Source: Candidatus Parcubacteria bacterium (GTDB taxonomy: Bacteria > Patescibacteriota > Minisyncoccia > Phycocordibacterales > CAIZLB01). From it: DNA of 64,000 nucleotides. Under the pieces are notes generated by a model, which was not told where the DNA came from, made no database searches, and saw only the letters and a program-made list of their open reading frames with translations. The stretch is taken from positions 750 through 64,749 of the forward strand of contig JBDKKY010000001.1 of assembly GCA_039795875.1 (NCBI GenBank). The letters are read 5' to 3'. A program made the position numbers and the translations under genes. Below are positions 12,950-63,511 of this stretch, piece after piece; within the stretch, counting starts at the first letter, position 1, and each line of letters starts with the position of its first letter.

Positions 12950-12989
12950 CCCTCCGTCATATCCAACCCGAACTTTTAACCCCTAACCA

Positions 12990-13033
12990 CCCGCTCGCAC
13001 AGACCCAACTGTGCGCGCGGGATTTTTTATTTA
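12990..13033 (+). terminator. intrinsic terminator ending the GC-rich island
   Basis: CCCGCTCGCACAG-acccaa-CTGTGCGCGCGGG then ATTTTTTATTTA. Confidence 0.7.
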
Positions 13034-13036
13034 TAT

Positions 13037-13480: not shown

Positions 13481-13487
13481 AAATCTA

Positions 13488-14651: not shown

Positions 14652-14668
14652 ACAGCGCTATGCCCAGA

Positions 14669-15451: not shown

Positions 15452-15501
15452 ACTATTGACTGTATCAGTATAACGTTACACAATCAAGCTCTACCGCTTT
15501 G

Positions 15502-16119
15502 TTATATCAATCTTTTTAACTGCTCCAACTCTTGCGCTAGCTTGTCTGAATCTTTCTTATAATTTTCAAAATTGCGCTTAGCGATCTCCATCTTTTCTCG
15601 AATACTGGTAACAAAAGCTGTTTTTTTGTCGGTGATCATTTTGGCCGTCTTACCATTCTGCTCTAGCCTAGAAATATCTTGAATCAGTCTCTGGTGTCTG
15701 TTTTTAAATGATAGCAAGTCCGCTTCCATCTGATGAATTTTCTTTTCCAAATCCTCAGCTTCTTTTTTGTGTGTCGGTAGGTCTTGTATAGCTCGCTTTT
15801 CTTCGGATTCAGCATGACCAACTTCTGTCTCATATCGAGTTAGCTCTGCGTGCAATCTCCTCTCCTCATTCTGAAAACGTTCTTGTGAGGCCAACAGCCC
15901 ATCATGTTCTCGCTTTTTACTATCATATTCCATTCGTGCACGCTCTTTATCTCTTCGCTCTTTTTCTTTTTTTAAATATTCCATCTCCATCCGCTGAGCA
16001 CCACCAGCATCATATGTACCACTATGAGAGGCACCACGAATTTCCTCAAGTTTGTTTTGAGTTATTCGATTTGTACTATTATTGTTTTGTCTTGACGGAG
16101 GGGTTGTAATGCCAAACAT
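15502..16119 (-). CDS. coiled-coil protein of unknown function
   Basis: 205 aa, highly charged heptad-like E/K/R-rich sequence. Confidence 0.5.
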   Translation of the reverse strand: MFGITTPPSRQNNNSTNRITQNKLEEIRGASHSGTYDAGGAQRMEMEYLKKEKERRDKERARMEYDSKKREHDGLLASQERFQNEERRLHAELTRYETEVGHAESEEKRAIQDLPTHKKEAEDLEKKIHQMEADLLSFKNRHQRLIQDISRLEQNGKTAKMITDKKTAFVTSIREKMEIAKRNFENYKKDSDKLAQELEQLKRLI

Positions 16120-16208
16120 GCAAATATTTTAGCACAAATCCATACTCAAGAAAAAAACAATGCTCAAGTTCGAGACATTGTTTTTTTCTTTCCGTGTGGA
16201 TTTCTCTA

Positions 16209-16281
16209 GAGCCGCCTCCCAGATTCGAACCGGGGACCTACTGTTTACAAAACAGTTGCTCTACCAACTGAGCTAAGGCGG
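16209..16281 (-). tRNA. tRNA-Thr (TGT)
   Basis: GCCGCCT acceptor, anticodon arm ACTGT-TTTGTAA-ACAGT, T-arm CCCGG-TTCGAAT-CTGGG. Confidence 0.85.
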
Positions 16282-16325
16282 CAAATGTAGAAAGACGATC
16301 TCTCGACCTCCCTACTATACACTAT

Positions 16326-16826
16326 CTACTTTCCTATTTCAAATCGTGCGAATCGCACCAATTCTACTTTCTCACCGAACTTTTGAATAGCCCCATCAAC
16401 TAGACCTTGAATTGTAATATCTCCATTTTTGATGAATGGCTGTGACATCAAAGCTTCTTCTGCAGATGCCCCAGCTGCTGTGGCCTCATCAGCTTTTAGA
16501 TAGGCTGGATTCATAGCGACAACGTGCATCGCAATGTCATTTGCAAGCGCCCGAAACTCTGGGTTGTTTGACACAAAGTCCGTTTCTGAAGCCAGTTGAA
16601 CCATGGCACCCATCAAACCATTTGAGTGAATGTATGATTGAATAACACCGGCACCCAATTCTCGATCAGCCTTTTTAGCAGCCTGCTCAGCACTTTTTTC
16701 TTTTAAAATAGCAAGCGCCTTCTCTCGATCCCCGTCCGCCTCTTCAAGCGCCTTCTTGCATTGCATGACTGAGATTCCGGTTTCTTCTCGCAAGGCTTTG
16801 ATTTGATCAGCTGTGATTGTACTCAT
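16326..16826 (-). CDS. tsf: elongation factor Ts (short form)
   Basis: N-terminal UBA-like IKALREETGISVMQCKKALEEADGD; rpsB-tsf synteny. Confidence 0.9.
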   Translation of the reverse strand: MSTITADQIKALREETGISVMQCKKALEEADGDREKALAILKEKSAEQAAKKADRELGAGVIQSYIHSNGLMGAMVQLASETDFVSNNPEFRALANDIAMHVVAMNPAYLKADEATAAGASAEEALMSQPFIKNGDITIQGLVDGAIQKFGEKVELVRFARFEIGK

Positions 16827-16879
16827 AATTTAATTGTGTGAATGTTAAAAAATTGATTAATGTAAATATTCTACACTAT

Positions 16880-17548
16880 TTAGGCAACCAATTGGTGTAG
16901 GATGAAATCTACTGATGATCGTGATGAATCATTGGCAAGGATAGGATACGTAATATTTGAAATCTTGCAGTCTGTGTTCGCAATGGCAATAACAGGAACT
17001 TTCATAGCGATAGCTTCGTCAACCGCAATAAATTCTTTCTTAGGATCCAACACAACAATAGCGGCCGGCATAGCTTTTAGATCTTTTACTCCTGAGAATA
17101 GCATCTGTAGCCGCTCAACTTCTTTGTCCATCAAAGATTGTTCTTTCTTTGTGTATTTTTTTAATTCTCCTTTGGCTTTCATATCGATAAGCTCAAGCAT
17201 TCGATCGATTCGTTTTCGGATGATCTCGAAGTTTGTAAGTAGACCTCCTACCCATCGGCCTGATACATACATCTGTCCTAGCTTCTCGGCGTATGTTTTT
17301 GCCAAGTCTTTGATTTCATTTTTACTAGCTACAAAAACAATAGGTTTGTTTTCAGCAATCAATGTTGCAAGAAATTCTTTAGCTGTAGCAATCTGTTTTG
17401 CAGTGACCTCGATATCAATGATATCCATGTTGCCTTTTGTACCATAAACATGCTTTGCAACTGAAGGGTTTCGTGAAGAACGTAGTGTTCCGTAGTGAAC
17501 TCCAGCCTCGAACATAGCTTGTGTGTCTGCTGTTTTTTGTTGTGTCAT
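16880..17548 (-). CDS. rpsB: 30S ribosomal protein S2
   Basis: MFEAGVHYGT, YVSGRWVGGLLTNF motifs; 222 aa. Confidence 0.92.
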   Translation of the reverse strand: MTQQKTADTQAMFEAGVHYGTLRSSRNPSVAKHVYGTKGNMDIIDIEVTAKQIATAKEFLATLIAENKPIVFVASKNEIKDLAKTYAEKLGQMYVSGRWVGGLLTNFEIIRKRIDRMLELIDMKAKGELKKYTKKEQSLMDKEVERLQMLFSGVKDLKAMPAAIVVLDPKKEFIAVDEAIAMKVPVIAIANTDCKISNITYPILANDSSRSSVDFILHQLVA

Positions 17549-17646
17549 ATAAGGTTTATGTATATCAAATTATAAGCCATAAATCAAGGGTTTTTTGGGT
17601 GGTTTCCGAGGGAGTGGCCGGGGTGGGTTTGGGGGTGTGATGGTAC

Positions 17647-17674
17647 TTGACTTTAGTTCTAGATATGGTATAAT
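17647..17674 (+). promoter_or_regulatory. consensus sigma70 promoter TTGACT-16 nt-TATAAT
   Basis: textbook hexamers upstream of the GC-rich small ORF. Confidence 0.5.
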
Positions 17675-17737
17675 ATACACATAAGACTCAATTAGGCACA
17701 GTGCCTATTTCTTAAAATCACCAACCTACCCACGTAC

Positions 17738-18145
17738 ATGAAACCAAAAACCAATAAAGCCTACAATGTTCCCCTATGGATCTGCATACTCATAGCAGGC
17801 ATCCTATTGGCCGTCTATTCCATGAACACCTCTTGGCTCGGCGAAGGCGGACCCATCGTCGCCTGTCTCGCTCTCAGCGGATCCCTTATGTCAATCCTCT
17901 TCTTGTTCTTCGAATGGGACCGTCGGCGTGAGCCACTACCTAATCCAGAAAAGTTCAGGTTTACTTGGAGGCAATTCTATATTGACACCCCCACCCTGCA
18001 CCGACGCGCGACCCCGCCGTTGAATGCAGCGGCGGGGTTTTTATTTTATATATTTTCTAATGGCGATCCTCATATTGCCTCAAGATCTCGGCTCCTCTCT
18101 GAAGCCAAACAGCCTTGCCGGCCAAATCAGTACCTATTTTTCTAG
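17738..18145 (+). CDS. small two-TM membrane protein in a GC-rich cassette; 3' end uncertain
   Basis: 135-aa ORF; hydrophobic segments LWICILIAGILLAVY and IVACLALSGSLMSILFLFF; the ORF reads through a strong terminator at 18012-18047, so its C-terminus is doubtful. Confidence 0.35.
   Translation: MKPKTNKAYNVPLWICILIAGILLAVYSMNTSWLGEGGPIVACLALSGSLMSILFLFFEWDRRREPLPNPEKFRFTWRQFYIDTPTLHRRATPPLNAAAGFLFYIFSNGDPHIASRSRLLSEAKQPCRPNQYLFF
18012..18047 (+). terminator. intrinsic terminator
   Basis: CCCCGCCG-ttgaatgcag-CGGCGGGG followed by TTTTTATTTT. Confidence 0.7.
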
Positions 18146-18593
18146 ATATCTCTACCAACATCTCAGCTCCTGCATGTTCTGTGGCCTCATCAGCAATCCT
18201 CATCAGGCACTCGGCAGATACTTTTATGGAACGAGCTAGAGCACCCCAAGAAGCTCCGTTGTCCAGTCGAACTCCTGCCACAGGCTTCTCATCGAGTGAA
18301 GAGAGTAAAGGCGCTAATTCATTTAGCGCCTGGGTAATTTCGAATATATCTTCAGAGGAAGTTATTTTTCTATCCAACCTCGTGGAGACATCACGAATAC
18401 GGGGAATATTTTCCGGTGATGTTAAATGAACCGTATAGTGTCCTTGTTCTCGAAGAGCAAGTGCGTGCGCTATTTCTATACATCTAATTTTTAATTTTAC
18501 ACACTCGCTGTGAATACTCTCAAGAGACTCTGGAGAAAATTCAACACCACCCCCAGATTCAACTGGAGTTGTTACATCAAAGCGTTCATACAT
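18057..18593 (-). CDS. hypothetical protein (178 aa)
   Basis: intact ORF, acidic, no recognised domain. Confidence 0.45.
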   Translation of the reverse strand: MYERFDVTTPVESGGGVEFSPESLESIHSECVKLKIRCIEIAHALALREQGHYTVHLTSPENIPRIRDVSTRLDRKITSSEDIFEITQALNELAPLLSSLDEKPVAGVRLDNGASWGALARSIKVSAECLMRIADEATEHAGAEMLVEISRKIGTDLAGKAVWLQRGAEILRQYEDRH

Positions 18594-18622
18594 ATCTATA
18601 TAGAATATCCTAAGCTGCGCGA

Positions 18623-19615
18623 TTAGTCACTATCTTCGTCATCCACAATTATTTCACCACCATTTTCAAAATACGTCACAACTTCATTTATCATCTTATC
18701 AATCTGACCTTGGAAAATAGTCTGGATACCATGCCATGATTGTTTAAGTCGATGATCTGTTACTCGATCTTGCAATACGTTATATGTTCGAATCTTTTCT
18801 GATCTATCTCCAGTTCCCAACTGAGACTTTTTCAAACCTGAAAACTTGGCCATGTCTTCCTCTTCTTTTTTAAGCGCAAGCTTGGCCTGCAAAATAGACA
18901 TAGCTTTTTCTCGGTTCTTCAGCTGACTTCGCTCCGATGTACAACGCACATCAATACCGGTTGGCTTGTGAATCAAACGCACAGCCGTTTCCACTTTGTT
19001 CACATTTTGTCCTCCAGCTCCACCTGATCGGGAGAATTCCATCTCTAGATCCGCCGGATTGATCTCAAACTTAACTCTTTTTCGGATCGGTAGTACTGCT
19101 ACAACCGCAGTTGACGTGTGCACTCGCCCTGACTTTTCTGTAGAAGGGATTCGCTGAATTCGATGTACACCGATCTCATATCTAAAAAATCTATACACTT
19201 CAAGACCACGGACCTCGAAGGCCGCCTCTTTATATCCACCGATACCGTTTTCAGAAATATCGACGGTCGAAAAGTTCCAACCTCTCTGCTCAGCCCAGAT
19301 CTTGTACATCTCTGACAGATCAGCCGCAAACAAGGCCGCTTCTTCTCCACCAACTCCGGCTCGGATCTCAAGCACGATCTCATTTGGATAGGCATCAGCA
19401 ACCTCTTCTTCTTTGACGATATCTTTGATCTTGGCCACAACTGCCTCCATCTGCTCATCAATGCCCTTCATGTCACCTTCGGCCATCTCTTTCATCTCAG
19501 GATCTTTCATCATGTCCAAAAGAGACTCCTTTTCTTTTTGGAGTCGCTCCAATTCGCCGACAAAAAAGCTTGTCTTAAAATCTTTCTTTAATTCTTCTAG
19601 GTTTAGATCTTCCAT
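18623..19615 (-). CDS. prfA: peptide chain release factor 1
   Basis: GGQ motif ([16 protein letters not shown]) and PST tripeptide (the PxT motif of RF1) in [14 protein letters not shown]. Confidence 0.85.
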
Positions 19616-19689
19616 GGTTTTGTTTGATTATATCATGCATATAACACAAAAGAGCCCTGTTATTGAGCTCTTTGTGGTGCGCGTAAGCG

Positions 19690-19920
19690 CTATTTACTCT
19701 TCTTAGCAACCTTCTTTGTTGTCGCAGCCTGTCGAGCCTTGAATTTCTCAACTCGTCCAGCAGTGTCAACGATCTTCTCATTTCCAGTATAAAATGGGTG
19801 GCACGCAGAGCAGATTTCTACGACGTTTTTCTCTCGGGTTGAGCCGATAGTATATGTGGCTCCACAAGCACAGGTAAAGCTTGCTGCAGGAAAATAGGTT
19901 GGATGTATCGATTTCTTCAT
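19690..19920 (-). CDS. rpmE: 50S ribosomal protein L31
   Basis: MKKSIHPTY..., CxxC...CxxCHPFYTG zinc-ribbon pattern. Confidence 0.9.
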
Positions 19921-19936
19921 AAGGCCCTATTATACA

Positions 19937-21280
19937 TTAATTCGTAATTAAATCAATATCAGCTTGTAACTTAAGGGCATGGGCCATAACTGAGTTTCCA
20001 TAGCTGGTATTTCCACTCACAGAGCCGCAGGCTTTGCCCGAATAGTATCGACAGGCCGCGTTTCGCTCAGCAGAGGCAGTCTGAGCACTAGCTCCAAGAT
20101 CCGCTACATAGAGAGCTGTCGCAGTGAAGGCATCTTGCGCATTCCAAGGGTTGGCTGTGCCCCCTCCCCCTCTGGCAGACACCACTCGAGCGGCGAACAT
20201 TTCCCATGTCGAAGGAATGAACTGTGATGGCCCCATAGCGCCTCCATATCCGATAGACAAAGGACAAGAAACGCGAGTTTTATATGGATCTTTGCCTAGG
20301 GCTTTGGTGATTCGCAAGAAAGGCTGAACATCTCGTGAAGGCTTCATCACGTTGGCCACAGCTTTGCCTGAGTTCGCCCCTACCCCTGCTCCTGTATCAG
20401 CGTCAGACAGATAACATGAACCGAGATTTGATCCGATATTGGTTTCTTGTTTCAAAATACCGAGAATAAATGCAGGCCGTACACCCGTGGCCGCTCCGGC
20501 GGCTTTGGCATATTTTACCGCATCCTCGAACTTGATAGAACCTGAGTCACGCAAAGCGAACAGTGCGTTCTTGATTTCATTTACTTTCTTTTGCTTTTCA
20601 TTGATCACCACATTGTACTCAGCTTTTTCTTTATTTTTTAAATTCAACAACCTCTGTTTTTCGGCCTCAGCTTTTTCTACAACTTTCTTTTTTTCTTCGA
20701 TTTGATATTTGGTATCATACTCTTCATTTCGTTTTTGGCCGAGAGAATCTTTTTCTTTTTCTTCGTCTTGCTTATCTTTATTGATATAACCGATCTCGTC
20801 TTTGATACGTGATTGTATGGATGTATATGCATCCATGTCTTGGAAAAAAGCTGACATCTCTTGCTGTGCCAGTAAGGCCTCAACCATAGTGTAGTTGTCT
20901 AACTCATAACTAGCCCGAATAATCTCAGCCAAACCCTCTCTACTGCGCACAATTCTACCCTGGAGAGTATTGATGTTTTTCTCTTTAGTGGTGATGTCTT
21001 TACCCAACTTGGCAATAGAAAGCTCTCGAGCTTTGATCTGTAGTTTGGCCTGCTGAATCTCAATCTCTAGGAGTTTCTTATCACGAGAAATAGAAGCCGC
21101 TTCACTTTCTAGCTTGCCGGTCTGAGTCTTTAAGCCAGCAATCTCAGCCTCGATCTTAGCCAATTCGGCCAGACAAGAGTCACGGTTCTCCGGTAAGTTA
21201 CAATCTAGAGACTGGGCACTAGCGAAAGTGAAAGCGGAAAAGATTGCAACAGCAAAGCCAATGGAAAAGACATATTTCAT
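19937..21280 (-). CDS. secreted coiled-coil protein with a C-terminal MltB-like lytic transglycosylase domain
   Basis: signal peptide, long coiled coil, then GAMGPSQFIPSTW (the GAMGQxQFMPS motif of the lytic murein transglycosylase B family). Confidence 0.6.
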   Translation of the reverse strand: MKYVFSIGFAVAIFSAFTFASAQSLDCNLPENRDSCLAELAKIEAEIAGLKTQTGKLESEAASISRDKKLLEIEIQQAKLQIKARELSIAKLGKDITTKEKNINTLQGRIVRSREGLAEIIRASYELDNYTMVEALLAQQEMSAFFQDMDAYTSIQSRIKDEIGYINKDKQDEEKEKDSLGQKRNEEYDTKYQIEEKKKVVEKAEAEKQRLLNLKNKEKAEYNVVINEKQKKVNEIKNALFALRDSGSIKFEDAVKYAKAAGAATGVRPAFILGILKQETNIGSNLGSCYLSDADTGAGVGANSGKAVANVMKPSRDVQPFLRITKALGKDPYKTRVSCPLSIGYGGAMGPSQFIPSTWEMFAARVVSARGGGGTANPWNAQDAFTATALYVADLGASAQTASAERNAACRYYSGKACGSVSGNTSYGNSVMAHALKLQADIDLITN

Positions 21281-21340
21281 ATATGAATATCATTATACCA
21301 GCTCCATCCATATATGCGAGTCCTGATATAGAGTAGGTGA

Positions 21341-21979
21341 CTAAGCCGTAGGTTCGTCTGCGCCCTCTTCATCCTTCTTACCTTTTTGATCAGACACTTC
21401 GATCGCAGTCATGTCTATCTCTGTAGCAGCCTCCTCTTCAACTTCTTCCTTGTGTTTAGCGGCCAAAACAATAACCTCATCTGCTCCTGTTAGGTATTTA
21501 ACACCTGGCAAGGCTGGTAGATCAGAAACAAGGATTTGATCCTCAACTTCTGCCAATTTTGCAAGATCAACTTCAATCTCGTGAGGAAGATCTTTTGCTT
21601 CAGCTTCAACTTCAACTTCGTGGAGAACTTTGACGAGATCGGCGTTGAGAGCTTTTACGGCATTTGATACTCCTGTAAAGATGATAGGAATATGTACGTG
21701 TAGTTTCTTTCCTTTCTCTACTACATAGAGGTCAGCGTGAAAAATATTTCCTTTTACAACATCTTTTTGGATATCGTGAATAAGAACATCTTGATCCTTA
21801 TCTAAGCCTTTCAGAGTAATAACTGAAGACTCTCCAGCATCTTTATATAATTTTGCAAATTCTTTTGTATCAACGGCAATCGGAGTTGACGGAAACTTTG
21901 CCCCATAGCAAACAGCCTTCATCTTGCCTGTCATATCAAGACCAGCCTCGATTTTCACCGCATTTAGTGTGTATGTCAT
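21341..21979 (-). CDS. rplY: 50S ribosomal protein L25 / general stress protein Ctc
   Basis: L25 N-terminal beta-barrel pattern plus an acidic C-terminal extension, as in the Ctc form. Confidence 0.8.
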   Translation of the reverse strand: MTYTLNAVKIEAGLDMTGKMKAVCYGAKFPSTPIAVDTKEFAKLYKDAGESSVITLKGLDKDQDVLIHDIQKDVVKGNIFHADLYVVEKGKKLHVHIPIIFTGVSNAVKALNADLVKVLHEVEVEAEAKDLPHEIEVDLAKLAEVEDQILVSDLPALPGVKYLTGADEVIVLAAKHKEEVEEEAATEIDMTAIEVSDQKGKKDEEGADEPTA

Positions 21980-22029
21980 AATGTACCGAAGTATACACTA
22001 ATTCTTGGATTTATCAACGTCTCTACCTA

Positions 22030-22713
22030 CTAATATCCAGTTGGTCCTAGGGCGTTCGTATCGTCGATAACACCTGTCGTATAGTTGTTGTTGAGGGACA
22101 CAGGGGGTGTTGTACCAACACTTATACCTTCAACTGAAGTATAGCCTGAGAAAGTTTTTTGGGTTTCTCGAGGAAAGGCAAATACGGCATTTGGAGACTT
22201 TGTCACTTCAGTTGCGGCTAGGTAGATAGGCTCTCCTACGTATGATTGACCCTCAAGATCGAAGACTGCTCCGGCGACCATATTACCCTCTGCTCCTTGT
22301 CCAACAGATTGACCAGCATCAGTGATATATACATAACAATATCCTTGACCAGCTAATGGATCTGGAGAAGGTGCGGAAGCTAGATATTTCTGAGACACAA
22401 GAATACCGAACAGTGTGTCATTATTGGTTTTAACCGCGCCTAGACAATCAAGCTGACCGCTGGGTAGTTTTGCATCGTCCCAAGTGTGGAACTGTGAGTT
22501 TGGCAGATATCCTCTATGATCAATCGAATACAAAGACAAAGCCTTTTCGATAGAATGGACTTCAGCTTGTCGTTTGGCATCTCGAGCTTTGGCCCGTGCA
22601 GTTGAAAGACTGGCACTGACAATAGAGGTTAAGAGACCGATGATGGCGATCACCACCAAAAGTTCGATGAGTGTAAATCCTTGTTGATTTGAACGATTTT
22701 TTAATTTCATCAT
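22030..22713 (-). CDS. type IV pilin / pseudopilin
   Basis: class III signal QQGFTLIELLVVIAIIGLL (prepilin cleavage and N-methylation motif). Confidence 0.85.
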   Translation of the reverse strand: MMKLKNRSNQQGFTLIELLVVIAIIGLLTSIVSASLSTARAKARDAKRQAEVHSIEKALSLYSIDHRGYLPNSQFHTWDDAKLPSGQLDCLGAVKTNNDTLFGILVSQKYLASAPSPDPLAGQGYCYVYITDAGQSVGQGAEGNMVAGAVFDLEGQSYVGEPIYLAATEVTKSPNAVFAFPRETQKTFSGYTSVEGISVGTTPPVSLNNNYTTGVIDDTNALGPTGY

Positions 22714-22726
22714 AGGTATATAAATA

Positions 22727-23050
22727 TTATAGTGTAGGGCTAATAATAGCTGGATTGACTCCGGAACTCTTGAATATTACAACTGTGGCGATGATCAATA
22801 ATATACAAATGCCGATCGTGACCGCCACGGCTTGATTTTCAGTTTTTACAAAGCCTTTGGTAACCAAGAATCGAATCATTGTTGGCACTTCAGGCTGACC
22901 GAGGATCTTCCGAGATCGTAGTTTGAATTTTGATTCATCAAAGGTAAGCTGGCCTGTTGATTGGCCTGGATTTGGCATTGTTTCAAATGTTGACATATAC
23001 CATAAGTCTACACCACAATATTTGACACCACAACTTGAATGCCTGGGCAT
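22727..23050 (-). CDS. hypothetical small protein with a C-terminal TM helix
   Basis: 107-aa ORF upstream of the pilin gene; start uncertain. Confidence 0.35.
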   Translation of the reverse strand: MPRHSSCGVKYCGVDLWYMSTFETMPNPGQSTGQLTFDESKFKLRSRKILGQPEVPTMIRFLVTKGFVKTENQAVAVTIGICILLIIATVVIFKSSGVNPAIISPTL

Positions 23051-23055
23051 AATAT

Positions 23056-24105
23056 ATGATAATCAATACTATGAACAAAATAAACTTCCTGGCCATCGGA
23101 GATACCGTAATCGATGCATTTATCAAGCTGACAACCGCTTCTGTACACGAAGATCCGCACGGAGAGAATAAAACTCTCTGTATGCCATTTGCGGAAAAGG
23201 TCCCTTTTGAGAGTGTGACCGAGATCCCGGCCGTTGGAAACAGTGCTAACGCCGCCGTATCCGCTGCCCGACTGGGACTATCGTCTGCCCTGCTCACTTG
23301 TTTGGGTGCTGATGAAAATGGAAAAAAATGTTTGGATCAATTTGCTGCGGAGAAAGTGGATGTATCTGAAGTAAACAGTATTCCAGGAAAAATTACCAAC
23401 TATCACTATGTGTTGTGGTACCAGAACGACCGGACCATTTTAATCAAGCACGAACTCTTTGAATATCATGTACCAATTATTGTGCCTGAATATATCTATC
23501 TCAGTTCACTTGGAGAAAACTCTCTGCCATTCCATCATGACATGGCTGCCTATCTGCAAGCACACCCAGAGGTAAAGTTGGTTTTCCAACCAGGCACATT
23601 TCAGATAAAGTTTGGGACGGATGAGCTGGCCGAGATTTACAAAAGGACTCATATCCTGTTTTGTAACAAAGAAGAAGCCATCCGGATTTTAAAATTGGAC
23701 GACAAAGCCGATCATGATATTAAACATTTGTTACTAGGATTACGGAATCTAGGAGTGCAGCTGCCTGTGATCACTGATGGTCCCTTTGGAGCTTATACAT
23801 ATGATACTGATATACGAGTTGTCGACAGCGCGACATTTGATGAATTGACACCTGTTGTGCACATGCCTATTTATCCTGATATCAAACCACCACTTGAGCG
23901 AACTGGTGCTGGTGATGCTTTTGCCTCTACATTTACCAGCGCATTGGCTTTGGGACGAACTATCACTGAAGCGTTGATGTGGGGATCTATCAACTCAATG
24001 TCAGTCTGCCAAGATATCGGCGCACAACGAGGGTTGCTGACTGAAGAGAAGATCGAAGCGTACATCAAAGTGGCACCAGAGGGTTGGGGTCCGGTAACGC
24101 TTTAA
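23056..24105 (+). CDS. PfkB-family carbohydrate/nucleoside kinase
   Basis: ribokinase-like fold signature TGAGDAFASTF near the C-terminus. Confidence 0.8.
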   Translation: MIINTMNKINFLAIGDTVIDAFIKLTTASVHEDPHGENKTLCMPFAEKVPFESVTEIPAVGNSANAAVSAARLGLSSALLTCLGADENGKKCLDQFAAEKVDVSEVNSIPGKITNYHYVLWYQNDRTILIKHELFEYHVPIIVPEYIYLSSLGENSLPFHHDMAAYLQAHPEVKLVFQPGTFQIKFGTDELAEIYKRTHILFCNKEEAIRILKLDDKADHDIKHLLLGLRNLGVQLPVITDGPFGAYTYDTDIRVVDSATFDELTPVVHMPIYPDIKPPLERTGAGDAFASTFTSALALGRTITEALMWGSINSMSVCQDIGAQRGLLTEEKIEAYIKVAPEGWGPVTL

Positions 24106-25112
24106 AGCGCAGCTTTTACAATATCCCCAGCATCAAGCTTATACTCTTTCATCAACTCTGCCGGTGTTCCTGATTGACCAAATCGATCATGTATCCCGAT
24201 TCTTTTAACTGGCTTTGGACATTGTTCAGATAAGATTTCACATACCAAGCTGCCAAATCCAGCAGCGATCTGATGCTCTTCTACTGTCACAACTTTTTGT
24301 GCATGTTTCGCATATGCAATCAGAGTTTTTTCATCAAATGGTTTTATCGTGTGAAAATTGATAACGACTACTTTTTTCCTGTGAGTCTTTTCCAGTTCGA
24401 TGCAGGCTTTGATAGCGTTAAACACCAGCGGGCCAGTGGCACAGATGAGCACGTCAAAATCGACTCCTTGGGTTACACCTTCAGTCATATATAAAATATT
24501 GGCTTTGCCAAAAACAAATGGAGTTTCTTCGGTGGTAATCACTGGTGTTTTTTCTCGAGCTAGGCGGATGTAGACAGATGATGTTACTTTTTTATCAAAT
24601 GCCGCAACAGTGGCTTTTCGTGCTTCGATGACGTCGCAAGGATAAATAATCTGCATGTTGGGAGTTACACGCATGAGGGCAATATCTTCAAGTGCCTGGT
24701 GGGATCCCCCATCAGGTCCGACAGAAAGTCCTGAGTGCGATCCTGCGATGATGACCTTGCGATCGTTATAGCAAATAGTGGTCCTGATCTGCTCCCAGTT
24801 ACGTCCTGGACTGAACATGGCATATGACGTTATAGCTGGCACCTTGCCCATAGCAGCCATTCCTGAGGCCACTGAGGCCATGTTTTGCTCAGCTACACCC
24901 ATCTCGACGAAGCGGTTGGGGAATTTCTTTTTAAATGCAGACATCTGCGTTGATTCTGTTAAATCGGCACATAGTCCTACTATAGATTCGTCCTTTTCCC
25001 CGGCCAACACAAAACCATCACCAAAACCTTTTCGCGTGTACACTTGCTCTACATCTTCGTCGAAAAGTTTTGGATTGAGGTTTGATGGGGCGTATAACAT
25101 ATATAGATACAT
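24102..25112 (-). CDS. transketolase C-terminal subunit (split transketolase, pyrimidine-binding plus C-terminal domains)
   Basis: FVEMGVAEQNMASVASGMAAMG, GSHSGLSVGPDGGSHQALEDIALMR; the N-terminal subunit gene is not adjacent. Confidence 0.8.
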   Translation of the reverse strand: MYLYMLYAPSNLNPKLFDEDVEQVYTRKGFGDGFVLAGEKDESIVGLCADLTESTQMSAFKKKFPNRFVEMGVAEQNMASVASGMAAMGKVPAITSYAMFSPGRNWEQIRTTICYNDRKVIIAGSHSGLSVGPDGGSHQALEDIALMRVTPNMQIIYPCDVIEARKATVAAFDKKVTSSVYIRLAREKTPVITTEETPFVFGKANILYMTEGVTQGVDFDVLICATGPLVFNAIKACIELEKTHRKKVVVINFHTIKPFDEKTLIAYAKHAQKVVTVEEHQIAAGFGSLVCEILSEQCPKPVKRIGIHDRFGQSGTPAELMKEYKLDAGDIVKAAL

Positions 25113-25334
25113 TATACATTAACAAGGGTGCGGACCAACTTTTTTGTGGTCACAGATAATCTCTTCGCCGTCGCTCAGATATTTGCTCGACCCTTACAGG
25201 GTCAGTACACCTTTTGGATCTTTTGCAGAGCAAAAGCTCTCAAAAGGTTTTACGCCTTGGGTCCCAACCCAAGACTCACCCGACTCGCCCGTTTTTCCAC
25301 AAGGAAAAACATGGCTCCGTCTCGCACATGTACG

Positions 25335-25364
25335 AAAAAAGAGCGGAACTATCCGCTCTTTTTT
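25335..25364. terminator. bidirectional intrinsic terminator downstream of tRNA-Ile
   Basis: AAAAAA-GAGCGG-aactat-CCGCTC-TTTTTT. Confidence 0.7.
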
Positions 25365-25370
25365 GTCATG

Positions 25371-25443
25371 TGCGCATGCTTGGGTTCGAACCAAGGACCT
25401 TTCGAGTATCAGTCGAATGCTCTACCAACTGAGCTACACGCGC
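25371..25443 (-). tRNA. tRNA-Ile (GAT)
   Basis: GCGCGTG acceptor, anticodon arm TTCGA-CTGATAC-TCGAA, T-arm CTTGG-TTCGAAC-CCAAG. Confidence 0.85.
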
Positions 25444-25669
25444 ATTATTCGTCTTCGTTCTCGGACCGCACGAAGCAGTCCTTCACTCATCCTCATAATG
25501 AAGAAGACAAGACATTCTCCGCGCTCCGACGCTTCACGATAGAAGCGCTGCGCGCATCGTCGTAAATGCCTACAGAGACGTGGACAATCTACAACGACGA
25601 ATAAACGATATTATACACAAAAACTGCCATTTGGCAATTTATTCTGATTTTAAATAGCTATTTTGGACC

Positions 25670-26272
25670 TTATTTAGCAACAGCTTTTTGTACGAAGAAC
25701 TTACCAGCGTCCTCCATTTCTGTCAAAGACTCACAGGCATTTGTTCCAGACAATCGGCCTGCATTTGTAGCAGTTGCCTTACCTCGTAGCTTAGGGTCAG
25801 ACTCTGTCGAACTTACAAGTTCACCCAATGAACCATATGTGTCAACTCGCTTCTTAATATACATCTCAACCGCAGTACGTGATTCTGCCCCACTGTCGGC
25901 AACAAAGACTTTGGTGTCTGATTTTGCGGGGAATGCCGGAGCTGACGCCGCATCTGTATACCAGGCAAATGTACATGAAGTATTTCTCTGTACTATGGCT
26001 GATCTACTATAATTACAAGCTGAACGCTCCATACATCCATCTCCACCTTGTCCTGGGACGTATCTACCTTGTCCTGGGACATATCCACCTTTTGTGACAT
26101 CACCTGATACAGCGCCTGCTGTAGGAGTTGTTGCAGTAGTAGGGTTATTTATCAATACTGCCTTAGTTGTGGCGGCTTGATTATCTTTATTGCTAATCGA
26201 TGTGCGTACACTGTAGACAATTGACGCTACAATAATTGCCAAAAGAACAACAATAGTTAATGTTTTTTTCAT
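25670..26272 (-). CDS. hypothetical signal-anchored secreted protein encoded in the 16S/tRNA-Ile spacer
   Basis: 200 aa; N-terminal TM LTIVVLLAIIVASIVY; contains a 21-nt tandem duplication encoding YVPGQG RYVPGQG. Confidence 0.5.
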   Translation of the reverse strand: MKKTLTIVVLLAIIVASIVYSVRTSISNKDNQAATTKAVLINNPTTATTPTAGAVSGDVTKGGYVPGQGRYVPGQGGDGCMERSACNYSRSAIVQRNTSCTFAWYTDAASAPAFPAKSDTKVFVADSGAESRTAVEMYIKKRVDTYGSLGELVSSTESDPKLRGKATATNAGRLSGTNACESLTEMEDAGKFFVQKAVAK

Positions 26273-26566
26273 ATACTAATATTGTATCACCTACTTCAAG
26301 AAAAAGAAAAAACCTTTATGAACATAATTCACACAGGTCTTTTCTCAACAAATAAGAATTTTCACAAATCAACGCTTGTTACAAGTTAAATAATTAAATC
26401 TATTATTTTGTTCTGTTTGGCCAGTCTTTCCTGGGGTCAAAATCTTTACGTGATTCCCACGCTCTAAATGCGACGAGTTAGAGTCTCGTTTATACAGTGC
26501 AAGCAAAGTATAAGAACGACCGCTATAAATTTTATACCCTCCCTAAAGAGGACATAAAACAGTTTT

Positions 26567-28110
<1,544 letters not shown>

Positions 28111-28554
28111 ACTCAAACAGAACAAAAGAAAGGATTCAATAAACTTAACTTAATAACTTGCGTTTTTTTGTGATGTATTCCTATTTAGTTTTCAAAAAAC
28201 AATCACAGAGTTCCCTCTATCTTTCTGATAGAAGTTCTTCTACTTTCCACAAGTGGAGTTAGAGGACACTTACTGCAATGGAACCAATTATACGCATATG
28301 GAAACCAAAGTCAAGCGTCTCATAGACTATTTTATCCTTATGATATAAGGGTTTTTTAGTGGTCTTTTTATTTGTCTTTAAAAGACCCTTATTTTACAGC
28401 GCTTTTATCCAAAAATAGTATCTAACTTTTAATTGGAGGCTCGTCGTAAGGGGTCACTTGATGTATTTGACAAGATTTTTGGGGTTGATATACTTACATC
28501 ATCTTCGGGACTTTCCCGCGACTCCACGAAAGTGGAGGCAATGACAAGGGCTCC

Positions 28555-28962
28555 TCAATTGAGGGGCTCTTGTTTTATATACAGACTTTCAAACTCTTTC
28601 TGTATGTTTCGCTTATCAAGTCGATCTACTTCGCCCAATTTATTCATTAACCTTCTATAATCCAGAACCCTGGCTTGATGCAGACAGACTCTAACCTCTT
28701 TTCCTTTTTGCCTAATAGGTACATACCAACTGCCACTTTTCGATTTAGAAGTCATAGGTAAGGTGAAATAAAAATTATGACTCAACTTAGTGTGTATATA
28801 CACAGGCCGAGCAAAGTTCTTACCCTTTCCATTAATTTCCTGTCCAACATTGTCGCCCATATTTGCCCACCAGATATCACCCTCTAAAACATATGGTGGT
28901 GCATGCCCCCGATCATGAATCTTCATCTTTAGTTTGATCCACTCCAAAAACCTTTTTATCAT
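28555..28962 (-). CDS. PemK/MazF-family endoribonuclease toxin-like protein (no apparent antitoxin gene)
   Basis: GDIWWANMG...GQEINGKGKNFARPVYIH, LPMTSKSK and QARVLDYRRL align with the Kid/PemK/MazF pattern (GEIW...G.E..G.RPV.I / P.TS / Q.R..D). Confidence 0.65.
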   Translation of the reverse strand: MIKRFLEWIKLKMKIHDRGHAPPYVLEGDIWWANMGDNVGQEINGKGKNFARPVYIHTKLSHNFYFTLPMTSKSKSGSWYVPIRQKGKEVRVCLHQARVLDYRRLMNKLGEVDRLDKRNIQKEFESLYIKQEPLN

Positions 28963-29057
28963 TGAATAAATATTAACAATAAATACCTCAAGGAAACCTT
29001 AGGGACTACCTAAGAAAATATAAATTTATTCCGTTCTTCCTGAACATATTCTGACTT

Positions 29058-55932: not shown

Positions 55933-56670
55933 TTAAGGACGATATATGATTTTTACCCCTGTGATCAAGCCTTTTGAGATAGTAAATTGGACAGGGTTCT
56001 CACAAGTAACACCGGCATTATATTTTCGATAGTAGGCATCCAGTATGGCAGGGGTTGGATTGTGGCAGATCAAGTACAAGTCATCCATGGTTATTTGTGT
56101 GCTGCTGTTTGAAATCGTGACACTTCCCAATTGCTTGTCTCCTGCGATCACACGAACTGCTGTTGATTTATTTCGTATATACACATATCCATCTGGAAAG
56201 GACCCGATGATACCAGCTCTGCTTTCTGTTTTAGATTGATATGATGCATACAACGCATCAAACTCTATCTCGGTCATTGCCCGTACTCCTTTGACTAAGG
56301 CTGCATATGTGGGATATCGATCTTTCATAATATCCCAATTGAAATTGGGGTTTGTTTCCGCGTCTGCTGCTGCGGCTAGAAAGGCTTCCTTTCCACCGAA
56401 TGATTGGACAAAATCTATAGTAAATGTGAATCGATCTGTTTTTGAAAGATTTCGAATATAACCAGTGTAGGTGCCATTGGCATACTCGCCAAGTGCGACA
56501 CTGTTTTTTGGAACGGCTACGTTTTTCGGAGTGGTTGAAGTAGCAGTGCTTGTGGCTGTCACCATGCGAGGCTCAGGATGACTTGTGGCAATATCATTGT
56601 TACCCCTAGCTACTGCCAGTGAAAGTAGTCCGATGAGAACAATGGCTCCGATGATGATGATTTTTTTCAT
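55933..56670 (-). CDS. hypothetical secreted protein
   Basis: track ORF extends to 56778 and would overlap the next gene; the internal start MKKIIIIGAIVLIGLLSLAV gives a clean signal peptide. Confidence 0.5.
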   Translation of the reverse strand: MKKIIIIGAIVLIGLLSLAVARGNNDIATSHPEPRMVTATSTATSTTPKNVAVPKNSVALGEYANGTYTGYIRNLSKTDRFTFTIDFVQSFGGKEAFLAAAADAETNPNFNWDIMKDRYPTYAALVKGVRAMTEIEFDALYASYQSKTESRAGIIGSFPDGYVYIRNKSTAVRVIAGDKQLGSVTISNSSTQITMDDLYLICHNPTPAILDAYYRKYNAGVTCENPVQFTISKGLITGVKIIYRP

Positions 56671-56713
56671 GAGGCTATTATAGCACGGTGGCAAGGGTGG
56701 GAATGGGGTTGTT

Positions 56714-57220
56714 TTAGGGCTTAGAGCCCTCGGCAATAAGCACATGAATGGCCTCAAATACATCCCTAAACTGGCCATCGTACTTGTTTTCCAACTCGTC
56801 TATCTTTTCTTTAAGTTCAGCATGGGTCAGGAGGAGTTCTCGGAGTTTGGTGAATGTTCTCATGATCTGAATGTTGACCTGTATGGCTCTATCGCTACGA
56901 AGGACACTCGAGAGCATAGCTATGCCTTGTTCGGTGAAGGCAAACGTCGGTCGTTTACGCGTCTTATTTCCAATCCTTACGATCACAAATTGTGATCGTA
57001 AGGATAACCGATCCGAATTATCTAATTTAAACATGAAATCTAAAGGAAATCTGTGAATATTTCTCTTCACTGCTTGGTTTAAGGTTCTAGGCTCAACGCC
57101 ATATAAAATAGCCAGCTCAATGTCCAGCATGACTTTTTGAGCTCTCACAATGTAAATCTTTGTCTGTATAGATTCTGGAATGATTATTAAAGCATTAGAT
57201 TGTTTCTGTTCTTTTGGCAT
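56714..57220 (-). CDS. ORF6N-domain (KilA-N-related) DNA-binding protein
   Basis: VRAQKVMLDIELAILYGVEPRTLNQAVKRNIHRFPLDFMFKL...LRSQF...FAFTEQGIAMLSSVLRSDRAIQVNIQIMRTF matches the ORF6N pattern. Confidence 0.75.
   Translation of the reverse strand: MPKEQKQSNALIIIPESIQTKIYIVRAQKVMLDIELAILYGVEPRTLNQAVKRNIHRFPLDFMFKLDNSDRLSLRSQFVIVRIGNKTRKRPTFAFTEQGIAMLSSVLRSDRAIQVNIQIMRTFTKLRELLLTHAELKEKIDELENKYDGQFRDVFEAIHVLIAEGSKP
56974..57004. promoter_or_regulatory. 31-nt perfect palindrome TCCTTACGATCACA-AAT-TGTGATCGTAAGGA inside the ORF6N CDS
   Basis: read directly; it encodes SLRSQFVIVR of the ORF6N protein. Confidence 0.6.
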
Positions 57221-57298
57221 AAATCCATTAAAACATATGAATCCTCAAGAATCTCTGAAGAACCGATCGAGAAACTTTAAAGATATCCACAGTTCCTC

Positions 57299-57329
57299 AA
57301 CTTGATATCACAAATTGTGATATCAAGTT
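57299..57329. promoter_or_regulatory. second palindrome AACTTGATATCACA-AAT-TGTGATATCAAGTT upstream of the ORF6N gene
   Basis: same 15-nt core ATCACAAATTGTGAT as the intragenic copy, with compensatory changes in the outer arms; sits in the 116-bp gap between the GNAT gene end and the ORF6N start. Confidence 0.6.
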
Positions 57330-57336
57330 CGATCCT

Positions 57337-57906
57337 CTACAACTCCTTCTCCATAATCAACTCGTTATGCCTCTTCCCGTCTCCCATTTTGCAATCCGCT
57401 TCTACTCCGATGTGTGTAAAACCCATTTTCTCGTACATAGAAATGGCAGCATTCTGTCCTTCGGTGACGTATAGCATTATTTTTGTGCCACCCTTCTTTT
57501 TTACTTCGTCTGTAACCATATTTACCAATTGTTTAGAAAATCTTTTACCTCGATATGGGACCGAAGTATACACGGCCATAAGTGCCCAGGATTTTTCATC
57601 CTCGTGCCACCGTCCTCCAGCCACAGAAACCAATTTTCCATCTTCTTCTATGCCTACATAAAAACTTTTTGGATCTGTCAGTCGTTCATGCCAATATTCT
57701 TCTTCTCCATCTATTTCCAATTTAGGATCACCCCAAAAAGCTTGAGGGTCTGTTTGCCACCCCTCTATACGAAGTGCTTTAAGTTTTTGCCAGTCGGTGG
57801 TAGTGAGAATTTTCATGTGATGACAATAATTATACCTTGACCGGTATATTGACAATTTGTTCGCAAAATATCCATGTGGTATGTTTAATGTATGCACCTT
57901 CGTCAT
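57337..57906 (-). CDS. GNAT-family N-acetyltransferase
   Basis: acetyl-CoA site PYRGKRFSKQLVNMVTDEVKKKGGTKIMLYV; the likely true start is the internal MKILTTTDW (about 57816). Confidence 0.8.
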   Translation of the reverse strand: MTKVHTLNIPHGYFANKLSIYRSRYNYCHHMKILTTTDWQKLKALRIEGWQTDPQAFWGDPKLEIDGEEEYWHERLTDPKSFYVGIEEDGKLVSVAGGRWHEDEKSWALMAVYTSVPYRGKRFSKQLVNMVTDEVKKKGGTKIMLYVTEGQNAAISMYEKMGFTHIGVEADCKMGDGKRHNELIMEKEL

Positions 57907-61026: not shown

Positions 61027-61545
61027 TTATTCGGTAGGCAACTCGATACTGTATCTGATCTCCTCAAATGCAAAACCATTTCTAGGTATCACTTTTTCTA
61101 TGCCGTCACACATCCATCCCCTAGATTCATAAAAATCCCTTGTTTTCGTATTACCTTTCAACACCCAAAGTATTGTCTTTTTGTATCCTTTTTCTTTAAG
61201 AAAATGTAATCCCGTTTTCATCAAATCCTTACCCGCTCCTTTTCCTTGATCTTCAGGGTGGGCATATATTGCGTACAACTCCCCTACTTCCTCGATCGCA
61301 TCATCGCCACGCATAGGACCAACACTACAGAATCCGATTATCTTTCCATCTTCTTCAGCCACATAAGTTCTGCAATCCTCTGATGATTTGGCTAAGCTGT
61401 TGGTCCAAAAAGCAGCTCGATCATCGACGGATAGTACGTCCAAAAAATCATCAGGCATATGACCACGATAATGAGATTGCCAAGTTTCTACGTGGACCTT
61501 GGCTATTCCTGGAGCGTCTTGTTGTTGAGCAGGGCGGATTATCAT
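61027..61545 (-). CDS. GNAT-family N-acetyltransferase
   Basis: IGFCSVGPMRGDD...YAHPEDQGKGAGKDLMKTGLHFLKEKGYKKTILWV. Confidence 0.85.
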   Translation of the reverse strand: MIIRPAQQQDAPGIAKVHVETWQSHYRGHMPDDFLDVLSVDDRAAFWTNSLAKSSEDCRTYVAEEDGKIIGFCSVGPMRGDDAIEEVGELYAIYAHPEDQGKGAGKDLMKTGLHFLKEKGYKKTILWVLKGNTKTRDFYESRGWMCDGIEKVIPRNGFAFEEIRYSIELPTE

Positions 61546-61563
61546 GGATACAATTATACCATT

Positions 61564-61824
61564 TTACACATACAGCTTGGCATGAGTCCCAATATCTATC
61601 AATACAGCGACGCCATCACTTTCATATGCGAAAATAGCTCGGTAATCTGCATTTACATTAAAACTGTACTTACCTGCATATCTACCTCTAAGGCCATGTA
61701 CATTCAATATTGAGTCATACTGATCTACCATGAATAGAGCTTGTCGTTCTTTGAACTTTCGCTGTATATTCTTAGGCAACTTTTTATATTGCTTCACAAA
61801 ATATTTGCTGTATATAATCTCCAT
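61564..61824 (-). CDS. RelE/ParE-family type II toxin
   Basis: 86 aa; F.KQYKKLPK...L.G.L.G.....S..V..DYR.IF pattern of RelE/ParE mRNA interferases; 3-nt gap to the upstream antitoxin gene. Confidence 0.75.
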   Translation of the reverse strand: MEIIYSKYFVKQYKKLPKNIQRKFKERQALFMVDQYDSILNVHGLRGRYAGKYSFNVNADYRAIFAYESDGVAVLIDIGTHAKLYV

Positions 61825-61827
61825 ATA

Positions 61828-62103
61828 CTATTGTGCATCCAGCCAGGCAGCTGCTTCTTTGCTATTTTTAAACTTAGGAGACCTATCCCCCTTTTTCTCT
61901 TTCATAACCTCACGAATGGCCGCTTCCAGGTAAGGAGTCATCTGAGGTGCTAAAGACACCGTCAGCTCTTGGGTAGTAACAAAATTGCGCAGCATGGCGG
62001 ATACCACAGAGGACAAGTTGAAACCCATAGCATCAGCTAGATCTGCTGCTTTTTTCTTAAGACCTTTGTCTATCTTGATATTCATCATGGTTTTTATCTG
62101 CAT
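61828..62103 (-). CDS. RelB/DinJ-family antitoxin
   Basis: IKIDKGLKKKAADLADAMGFNLSSVVSAMLRNF resembles the DinJ/RelB RHH fold; operon partner of the RelE-like gene. Confidence 0.75.
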   Translation of the reverse strand: MQIKTMMNIKIDKGLKKKAADLADAMGFNLSSVVSAMLRNFVTTQELTVSLAPQMTPYLEAAIREVMKEKKGDRSPKFKNSKEAAAWLDAQ

Positions 62104-62147
62104 ATCTATAGTATATACTTTGGATAGGGCTTGTCAAATGGATATTA

Positions 62148-63421: not shown

Positions 63422-63424
63422 ATG

Positions 63425-63511
63425 CGGAGGATGTGAGATTCGAACTCACGGGGCAGTTTCCCACCCGACAGTTTAGTAAACTGTTGATTTAAACCACTCA
63501 TCCAATCCTCC
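63425..63511 (-). tRNA. class II (long variable arm) tRNA, Ser-like, with apparent anticodon ACT
   Basis: GGAGGAT/ATCCTCC acceptor, 3-bp D-stem, anticodon arm ACAGT-TTACTAA-ACTGT, long variable arm, T-arm GTGAG-TTCGAAT-CTCAC. Confidence 0.65.

Follow-up and report, generated by a model that had tools for sequence, protein, structure and literature searches.

Analysis of a 64,000-nucleotide (nt) stretch of contig JBDKKY010000001.1, which comes from a Candidatus Parcubacteria metagenome-assembled genome (MAG) and is called the window below, revealed that its ORF6N-domain gene carries a perfect palindrome, P1, within the coding sequence (CDS). P1 is the window's own copy of a family-wide element. 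A second palindrome, P2, is located in non-coding DNA just upstream of the gene. The element exists and is conserved, its arms covary, it is independent of the reading frame and it clusters at ORF6N genes, where another conserved partner gene is absent. As far as Rfam and the searched literature go, the intragenic palindrome is a previously undescribed DNA element; no description of it was found in the literature on ORF6N, on PDC-S05, on RhuM with defense or on KilA-N with palindrome. Our tentative preference, held at somewhat less than even confidence, is that the element is a dyad site acting at the DNA level, capable of forming a hairpin or cruciform and recognised by the ORF6N protein itself, probably for autoregulation. 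The gene and the two palindromes are as follows.

56714-57220, minus strand: ORF6N-domain gene, 168 amino acids (aa), with an N-terminal ORF6N domain (PF10543) and then C-terminal helices

56973-57005, no strand assigned: P1, intragenic perfect palindrome, 16+1+16 nt, ATCCTTACGATCACAA-A-TTGTGATCGTAAGGAT, from the inverted-repeat scan

57299-57329, no strand assigned: P2, solo non-coding perfect palindrome, 15+1+15 nt, AACTTGATATCACAA-A-TTGTGATATCAAGTT, from the inverted-repeat scan

Reading of the sequence and the inverted-repeat scan showed that both palindromes, which had been pointed out in an earlier sequence-only reading of this DNA, are present and non-random. No other palindrome in the window has 100% complementary arms of at least 15 nt. 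P1 encodes residues S73-R82 of the ORF6N protein, and its translation within the minus-strand open reading frame (ORF) 56714-57220 is S-L-R-S-Q-F-V-I-V-R. The sequence-only reading had described P1 as a perfect 31-nt palindrome inside the gene that encodes this same segment; the place, the perfection and the peptide stand, and the palindrome itself is slightly longer, with 16-nt arms around one base. P2, which had been placed about 80 bp upstream of the gene, is 78 nt ahead of the ORF6N ATG (57220), has perfect arms of 15 nt and begins 7 nt past the stop codon (57337-57339) of a gene for a GNAT acetyltransferase. P1 and P2 have the same inner core, the 15-mer ATCACAAATTGTGAT, and differ at five positions of the outer arms, all five of which are compensated. 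Thus a shared 15-nt core with mutually compensating arms, as previously claimed, is indeed present. When two mismatches were allowed, ATCACAAATTGTGAT was found at just those two sites in the 64-kb window, where shuffled sequence averages 0.40 matches, so that the core is not a motif frequent at random positions. Folding as RNA gave -22.5 and -18.0 kcal/mol for P1 and P2, respectively (z -5 to -8 against shuffles), and folding as single-stranded DNA gave -15.3 and -12.7 kcal/mol (z -10 and -7).

The palindrome is conserved across the family. We collected homologues from 80 genomic loci, with 49-61% protein identity and from more than 15 phyla, and extracted the arms by anchoring on the invariant Ser-Gln in the protein alignment, which makes the extraction independent of palindromy. 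Of the 80 homologues, 79 have a palindrome with arms of 12-16 bp at this same codon. Counted from the first base of codon 78, positions 2-13 of the two sides form Watson-Crick pairs in 75-100% of these 79 genes, and over the 80 loci complementarity drops to background beyond position 15 from the centre. The arms vary between genes yet remain complementary, for example CTTGAAATCACA/TGTGATTTCAAG, TTTAAGGTCACA/TGTGACCTTAAA and TGAACCTATCACA/TGTGATAGGTTCA. The core covaries too (TCACA/TGTGA, TCGCA/TGCGA, TTCCA/TGGAA, TGCCA/TGGCA). The palindrome is therefore not a trait of one locus with a special 15-nt core, as the sequence-only reading had presented it, and its absence from orthologues, which that reading had named as evidence against itself, was not observed.

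The covariation was quantified in the alignment of 79 sequences. In this alignment, 95.8% of stem cells are paired, compared with 80.4% after shuffling and 22-46% with slid partners. Nine of the 12 pairs have changed on both sides, with 164 compensatory cells, and none of 500 shuffles was as high. Shuffling of synonymous codons with the peptide held fixed predicts 4.8±0.18 Watson-Crick pairs of 12, whereas 11.3 were observed; therefore, the constraint acts on the nucleic acid. In one example of compensation, a Ser codon change from TCA to TCG matches a Val to Ala change. The L-[KR]-S-Q-[FI]-V-[IT]-S motif that is conserved in the protein is largely the translation of the palindrome. Because the arms covary, they are not conserved towards one half-site consensus as in a simple duplex operator bound by a dimer. 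These results bear out the proposal that the compensating arms reflect selection for symmetry or structure and not for a linear motif, since they covary in 79 homologues beyond what codon constraint accounts for.

Furthermore, the palindrome is retained where the peptide is not. Homologues at 33-45% identity (long-form and plasmid) have it at the same place, and so do homologues on viral contigs. In a Treponema homologue, Lys replaces the Gln that is invariant elsewhere, and a matching change in the partner codon gives Ser (GGTCGAAA-A-TTTCGACC). In genes from Legionella, from Segatella plasmids and from some viral contigs, the palindrome is read in a different frame, giving VVANCDHL, VVENFDHL or LITNCDK. 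The residue change in Treponema and the second reading frame indicate that the DNA element is conserved independently of the peptide. The family in which this occurs is large, with 29,453 clusters (50% identity) at E<=1e-3 and 12,170 at E<=1e-10, and it is rare among phage records (5/50,697) and plasmid records (25/72,556). A search of complete E. coli genomes for a homologue gave no DNA-level match.

P2 was compared in syntenic relatives. The gene order GNAT, solo palindrome, ORF6N is shared by the window and two contigs from related bacteria, L088 and L298, and the three solo copies are all perfect palindromes of 31-33 nt. Their sequences are as follows.

Window: AACTTGATATCACAA-T-TTGTGATATCAAGTT

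L298: ATACTAGATATCACAA-T-TTGTGATATCTAGTAT

L088: ATCTTACGGTCACAA-A-TTGTGACCGTAAGAT

57221-57298 of the window, minus strand: leader or promoter region from P2 to the ORF6N ATG, of roughly kept length in the three syntenic lineages (78 nt in the window, 65 nt in L088 and 61 nt in L298)

P2 of the window and its counterpart in L298 are identical at 27 of 31 positions and differ by two compensated pair changes, compared with 44 of 78 identical positions in the adjacent spacer and an upstream spacer that is unalignable. Taking L088 and L298 together, identity of the spacer around the palindrome is about 55% where it can be aligned. The distance from the solo palindrome to the GNAT stop is not kept (7 nt in the window, 3 nt in L088, 85 nt in L298), in contrast to its distance to the ORF6N ATG. 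Therefore, P2 is part of the 5' region of ORF6N, and constraint acts on it. A dyad site at a conserved upstream position of the putative regulator's own gene, which is what characterises an operator, is thus found in three syntenic lineages, consistent with the operator-like position that had been assigned to P2. P2 was also considered as a fragment of a decayed ORF6N pseudogene, and this was rejected, because translations around the solo copies contain no ORF6N remnants and P2 is kept in orthologous loci.

The same comparison bears on the possibility that P2 is an intrinsic terminator of the GNAT gene and that P1 is a coincidence of the conserved SQFV peptide. This would fit the start of P2 so close to the GNAT stop, and the codons of S-Q-F-V alone can spell TCACAATTTGTGA. 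However, the terminator scan does not call P2, and a T-run follows it on neither strand; the L298 palindrome lies far from the GNAT stop and still 61 nt from the ORF6N ATG; and the codon-shuffled peptides reach only 4.8 of the 12 pairs. Thus this possibility is contradicted by the data, and we regard it as extremely improbable.

The correction of quasipalindromes by template switching is well established as a mutational mechanism (Ripley; Lovett and colleagues). The palindromes might be maintained by it non-adaptively, if template switching at replication copied one arm from the other; in that case the solo copies would be relics left by decayed ORF6N genes, and the element would be functionless. 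Such copying would yield exactly paired changes without a G·T bias, as is seen. In addition, the arms of P2 in the window and in L088 differ at 5 of 15 pairs, which is about the divergence of neutral spacer, and the region is a hotspot of indels and duplications. On the other hand, retention in about 99% of the sampled genes, in two frames and even with an invariant residue changed, points to purifying selection on the presence of the palindrome. The non-coding P2 is far better conserved than its flanks in the L298 comparison and keeps its distance to the ATG, and stems are unchanged in syntenic pairs whose flanks have diverged by 16-19% (L036/L038, L138/L183). Solo copies without surrounding ORF6N remnants do not look like relics either. 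We therefore judge functionless self-maintenance to be distinctly unlikely.

Does the signal act in DNA or in RNA? The ORF6N transcript could carry one hairpin in its 5' leader and another in the coding region, and these could control translation or decay, for example by way of RNase III, by pausing of ribosomes or by binding of the ORF6N protein, which would then repress its own translation. Both palindromes form stable sense-strand hairpins (-22.5 and -18 kcal/mol; z about -5 to -6), the upstream copies lie 0-80 nt from start codons, with those of L011 and L027 abutting or overlapping the start region, and the conserved distance between P2 and the ATG would suit such a role. In some members the variable centre looks like a 3-nt loop (GAT, AAC, TTT, AAA). 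However, G·U pairs are not tolerated in preference to others: the non-Watson-Crick cells of intragenic copies are, on the sense strand, A·C in 35, G·T (G·U in RNA) in 18 and other mismatches in 20, and those of solo copies are G·T in 26, A·C in 17 and other in 23. There is no excess of G·U or G·T on either strand and no asymmetry usable for strand choice. The central A-W-T is kept in non-coding copies, with A or T at the centre about equally (AAT 34, ATT 31); thus the A...T flanking the centre stays paired even there, for which a hairpin loop has no need. Other copies are found downstream of genes, or far away from every ORF6N gene. Rfam gave no meaningful match at E<=10 in 56600-57500, and at gathering score over the whole window it returned rRNA and tRNAs only. 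The lack of G·U excess, the kept A...T flank and the absence of an Rfam match fit a two-fold symmetric, AT-centred DNA element better than a sense-strand RNA hairpin. The AT-rich centre is of the kind favoured for cruciform extrusion; action at the RNA level appears unlikely.

Besides P2, solo copies were found at other loci. Of the 80 gene-anchored loci, 10 have solo non-coding palindromes of the same type, most of which lie a short way upstream of the gene. When public collections were scanned with one common arm class, at least 120 metagenome stretches and 6 viral ones matched. From these, 126 loci were recovered, and they contain 106 palindromes within ORF6N genes and 84 solo ones. Most of the solo copies are located 20-300 nt upstream or 20-90 nt downstream of an ORF6N gene, several are arrayed at a spacing of 36-67 nt, and in L195, L152 and L103 palindromes stand on both sides of the gene. 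In about 14 loci a copy lies without a nearby ORF6N gene, in non-coding or random-frame sequence. Units are also repeated within coding sequences. L100 has an intact ORF with seven units in frame, at spacings that are multiples of 3 nt, and in-frame doubles to quadruples are found in L018, L028, L083, P0088, P0229, P0212 and P0217. The alignment is split at query residues 63-80 in 16 of the 150 top cluster representatives.

A conserved partner was searched for in the genes around the element. The 136 ORFs flanking the 80 loci matched 119 Pfam families, none of which is present in more than three loci, and no recurrent recombinase or transposase was found among them. A few loci are in restriction-modification contexts. 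The sole constant companion of the element is the ORF6N protein itself.

These data also concern recombination. The palindromes could be structure-recognised crossover or cleavage sites, comparable to attC, REP/RAYT or IS200-type hairpins, that bound exchangeable modules or a mobile unit, in which case a replaceable cassette for the N-terminal part would lie between P2 and P1. When the window is compared with L088, the stretch that starts at P2 and ends about 40 nt past P1, that is, the N-terminal half with both palindromes, is 43-65% identical, compared with 77-82% for the end of GNAT and the C-terminal half of ORF6N around it; therefore, module replacement has occurred. The palindromes on either side of genes in L195, L152 and L103, gene fragments that begin at a palindrome in L178, L158 and L129, and in-frame tandem units that join two arm classes (L018, L028, L083, P0088) point in the same direction, as do the isolated solo copies and the presence of the family in many phyla and unrelated contexts. 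However, in the three usable pairs the mosaic breakpoints map 60-108 nt 3' of the centre of the palindrome, where the conserved AFTEQG block starts, a pattern that would be expected of ordinary homologous recombination. Neither a recombinase nor a transposase is conserved nearby, and the protein has an ORF6N domain only. The element is not multicopy here, with two copies in 64 kb, both at the gene, and its perfect stems have no extrahelical bases, unlike attC. Target-site duplications were not found, and among 215 loci there were no empty sites and no syntenic pairs with and without the gene, only gene-carrying pairs. It is thus doubtful that the palindromes are recombination or mobility sites.

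Several further arrangements of ORF6N genes were noticed. The Segatella copri plasmids L216 (NZ_CP152354.1, 2955 bp) and L217 (NZ_CP152486.1, 4140 bp) are annotated with Rep and the palindrome-bearing ORF6N gene only, so that these minimal replicons have ORF6N as their one accessory gene. Tandem ORF6N genes were seen as well, four in L063:1299-3659, where the C-terminal thirds are nearly identical, and three in L045:2061-3758, and in L089:1175-2023 two ORF6N units are fused as one ORF of 282 aa. This indicates frequent local duplication and gene conversion. In a gammaproteobacterial MAG, a different palindrome of 27 nt, GGGGGACAGATTTCAAATCTGTCCCCC, flanks an ORF6N gene on both sides (L057:2334 and L057:3584); it looks REP-type and unrelated to the ORF6N palindrome.

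The protein encoded by the window's gene is a clear ORF6N member among the ORF6N/KilA-N/Bro-N/Rha DNA-binding domains. It matches Pfam PF10543 over residues 21-106 with the whole model covered (E 2.3e-28; 98.7 bits against a gathering cut-off of 27.8), which confirms the domain assignment made from sequence alone, and ORF6N is the sole Pfam domain of the 168-aa protein. Three PADLOC models of PDC-S05, a single-gene phage defence candidate, match it (E 8e-54, 4e-51 and 6e-37), whereas the match to a PHROG anti-repressor family is weaker (E 3e-27) and is graded as weak-to-moderate similarity. In E. coli, T7 and T5 plated about 1000-fold less with one PDC-S05 representative that carries a RhuM domain (preprint 10.1101/2024.09.26.614923). 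That representative is a long form, in contrast to the 168-aa form here, which has no effector domain.

The structure of the protein was modelled with AlphaFold2. The predicted local distance difference test (pLDDT) score is 70 overall and below 50 for residues 79-87, and the model shows long C-terminal helices. In it, the palindrome falls where helix 68-77 ends and a low-confidence loop rich in indels, 78-92, starts. The CDS of this loop is the following.

56945-56989, minus strand: CDS of residues 78-92, a low-confidence loop with alignment gaps, which hosts the P1 3' arm and into which extra in-frame units are inserted in homologues

According to the model, the loop of residues 78-92 is a permissive spot in the protein. 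A sequence search of the PDB and a Foldseek search with the AlphaFold2 model gave no significant relative; the matches were weak, winged-helix-like or partition-protein-like, with E>0.6.

Taken together, we infer that the ORF6N protein binds the element, that the element acts as DNA rather than RNA and that the outcome is autoregulation. P1 and P2 would then be copies of a dyad-symmetric DNA element that has probably been an ancient, integral part of ORF6N (PDC-S05-type) genes. One copy would always be kept inside the CDS, at the helix end or the start of the permissive loop, and further copies would often be placed just upstream or downstream. The gene's own product, which is predicted to bind DNA and is probably a dimer, would have the element as its cognate cis site. 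The protein may read the conserved AT-rich centre and the inner core (TC-R-CA-A-W-T-TG-Y-GA), while the outer 7-10 bp might need only self-complementarity, that is, the ability to extrude or fold. Binding at the promoter-proximal P2 and at P1, as an intragenic roadblock, could result in negative autoregulation, and such control would be independent of context and travel with the gene wherever the gene lands.

Several points weigh against autoregulation through such a site. Upstream copies occur in only about 12% of gene-anchored loci, so that promoter-level control cannot be the universal role. Some solo copies are far from any ORF6N gene, and arrays of up to seven in-frame units in one ORF are not predicted by simple autoregulation. 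A sigma-70 promoter scan around P2 recognised no promoter between P2 and the ATG, and the promoter could not be placed relative to P2. DNA binding by ORF6N is predicted at the family level, the structure model is moderate (pLDDT 70) and the fold search has no significant match. A plain duplex operator, moreover, needs no covariation of arms at positions that differ between P1 and P2 of one genome. Because of this covariation, a model of autoregulation must add a structural requirement, such as a cruciform or hairpin, or homogenisation by template switching.

Alternatively, ORF6N (PDC-S05-type) genes might be self-contained units of a protein and a structured DNA hairpin or cruciform in its own CDS. 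The protein would recognise the structure and not the sequence, and the element, together with any flanking or tandem copies, would be the partner with which the protein works in defence or self-spread. The element could then be a cis loading, sensing or trigger site that answers supercoiling or single-stranded DNA during infection, or it could be the substrate of a new, non-HUH hairpin-directed recombination activity. We give this alternative a low probability. If it is true, it would define a new class of gene-internal, structure-conserved DNA element.

Among known systems, partial resemblances were seen to parS within parB, to intragenic auxiliary operators, to attC, to the hairpins of REP/RAYT and IS200 and to quasipalindrome hotspots, but in every case the element lacks at least one defining feature. 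parS is a short palindrome inside parB/spo0J, is bound by the encoded protein, is conserved across phyla and has extra copies nearby. The ORF6N element resembles it in being a palindrome within the CDS of its own putative binder, in its cross-phylum distribution and in its additional nearby copies. It differs in that parS (16 bp) is essentially invariant, whereas the arms of the ORF6N element covary freely. The ORF6N protein has no ParB/Spo0J domain, there is no partition ATPase nearby, the matches to partition-protein folds have E>0.9, and the binder here is a candidate. The combination of an upstream dyad at a conserved distance and a second site in the CDS is like that of auxiliary operators (lac O2 in lacZ, gal OI in galE) and of a roadblock. 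However, half-sites of ordinary operators are conserved to a consensus without arm compensation, and in ORF6N genes the universal copy is intragenic and the upstream copy is optional.

Like integron attC sites, which are recognised in folded form and bound cassettes, the element keeps its structure while its sequence varies and has short core motifs. attC sites are 57-141 nt long, intergenic and dependent on IntI, and have imperfect stems with extrahelical bases that set strand choice; in contrast, the ORF6N stems are perfect, 27-33 nt long and inside a gene, and no integrase is conserved nearby. REP/REPIN-RAYT systems and IS200/IS605 hairpins share with the element short palindromes that flank a small single gene (about 150-170 aa), solo copies or clusters, and conservation of structure over sequence. 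However, ORF6N is not an HUH/Y1 transposase, the window holds only two copies in its 64 kb, the hairpins are perfect and not imperfect, and one copy of the ORF6N element is always in the CDS at a fixed codon. Quasipalindrome template-switch hotspots show the same concerted, perfectly complementary arm changes without G·T bias. Such a hotspot is a mutational process, and leaves unexplained the family-wide retention, the position and the conservation of P2 relative to its flanks.

These results mean that a family of about 12,000-29,000 clusters in most bacterial phyla, which is a single-gene anti-phage candidate, carries a nucleic-acid signal in its ORF that shapes the protein sequence. The element provides a concrete handle on what ORF6N domains recognise, a question that has stood since the domain was defined. 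It also warns that a 'conserved protein motif' can be partly a DNA constraint. Furthermore, it is a clean natural case of compensatory evolution at the DNA level in a CDS, with two reading frames and in-frame amplification, and the protein tolerates synonymous recoding.

The gene next to P2 on the upstream side is the GNAT gene.

57337-57816, minus strand: upstream GNAT acetyltransferase, a syntenic neighbour in three related Parcubacteria; module membership is not supported beyond synteny

The sequence-only reading had extended this gene to 57337..57906. Its start is probably 57816 and not 57906, as it is called so on the identical contig L001. GNAT adjoins ORF6N in none of the other 80 loci. 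Co-regulation of GNAT with ORF6N had also been suggested; what speaks for it is synteny in three close relatives only, and P2 keeps its distance to the ORF6N start and not to the GNAT stop. The locus as a whole is composed of ordinary chromosomal genes, namely GNAT, a secreted hypothetical protein, a two-component system and a MOSC-domain gene. This ordinary setting, the rarity of the family in phage and plasmid records and the match to PDC-S05 leave the suggested phage antirepressor or mobile-element origin weakly founded. In particular, the non-phage neighbours and the 5 of 50,697 phage records with homologues do not fit a phage antirepressor (Ant/KilA-N type) in a prophage. The longest ORF of the downstream gene (55933-56778, minus strand) overlaps the ORF6N 3' end by 65 nt. 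Its start is likely the Met of MKKIIIIG near 56672, before a signal-peptide-like segment, and the syntenic gene in L088 begins at the equivalent MKKVIIF.

Other features of the window were also noted. At 63424-63511 on the minus strand, ARAGORN called a tRNA-Ser whose anticodon, ACT, is unusual in bacteria, where GCU or NGA is the norm, and Rfam confirms a tRNA. The 16S rRNA gene (26568-28109, minus strand) is followed by tRNA-Ile (25370-25443, minus strand), and 23S and 5S rRNA were not detected in the 64 kb; therefore, the rRNA operon appears to be unlinked. Gene calls on the identical contig L001 place a pair of a RelB-like antitoxin and a YafQ-like toxin at about 61564-62126 on the minus strand. 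An imperfect palindrome with 16-nt arms (62103-62126) overlaps the start of the antitoxin gene and resembles the operators typical of toxin-antitoxin systems. After this pair, a second GNAT gene is located at about 61027-61545.

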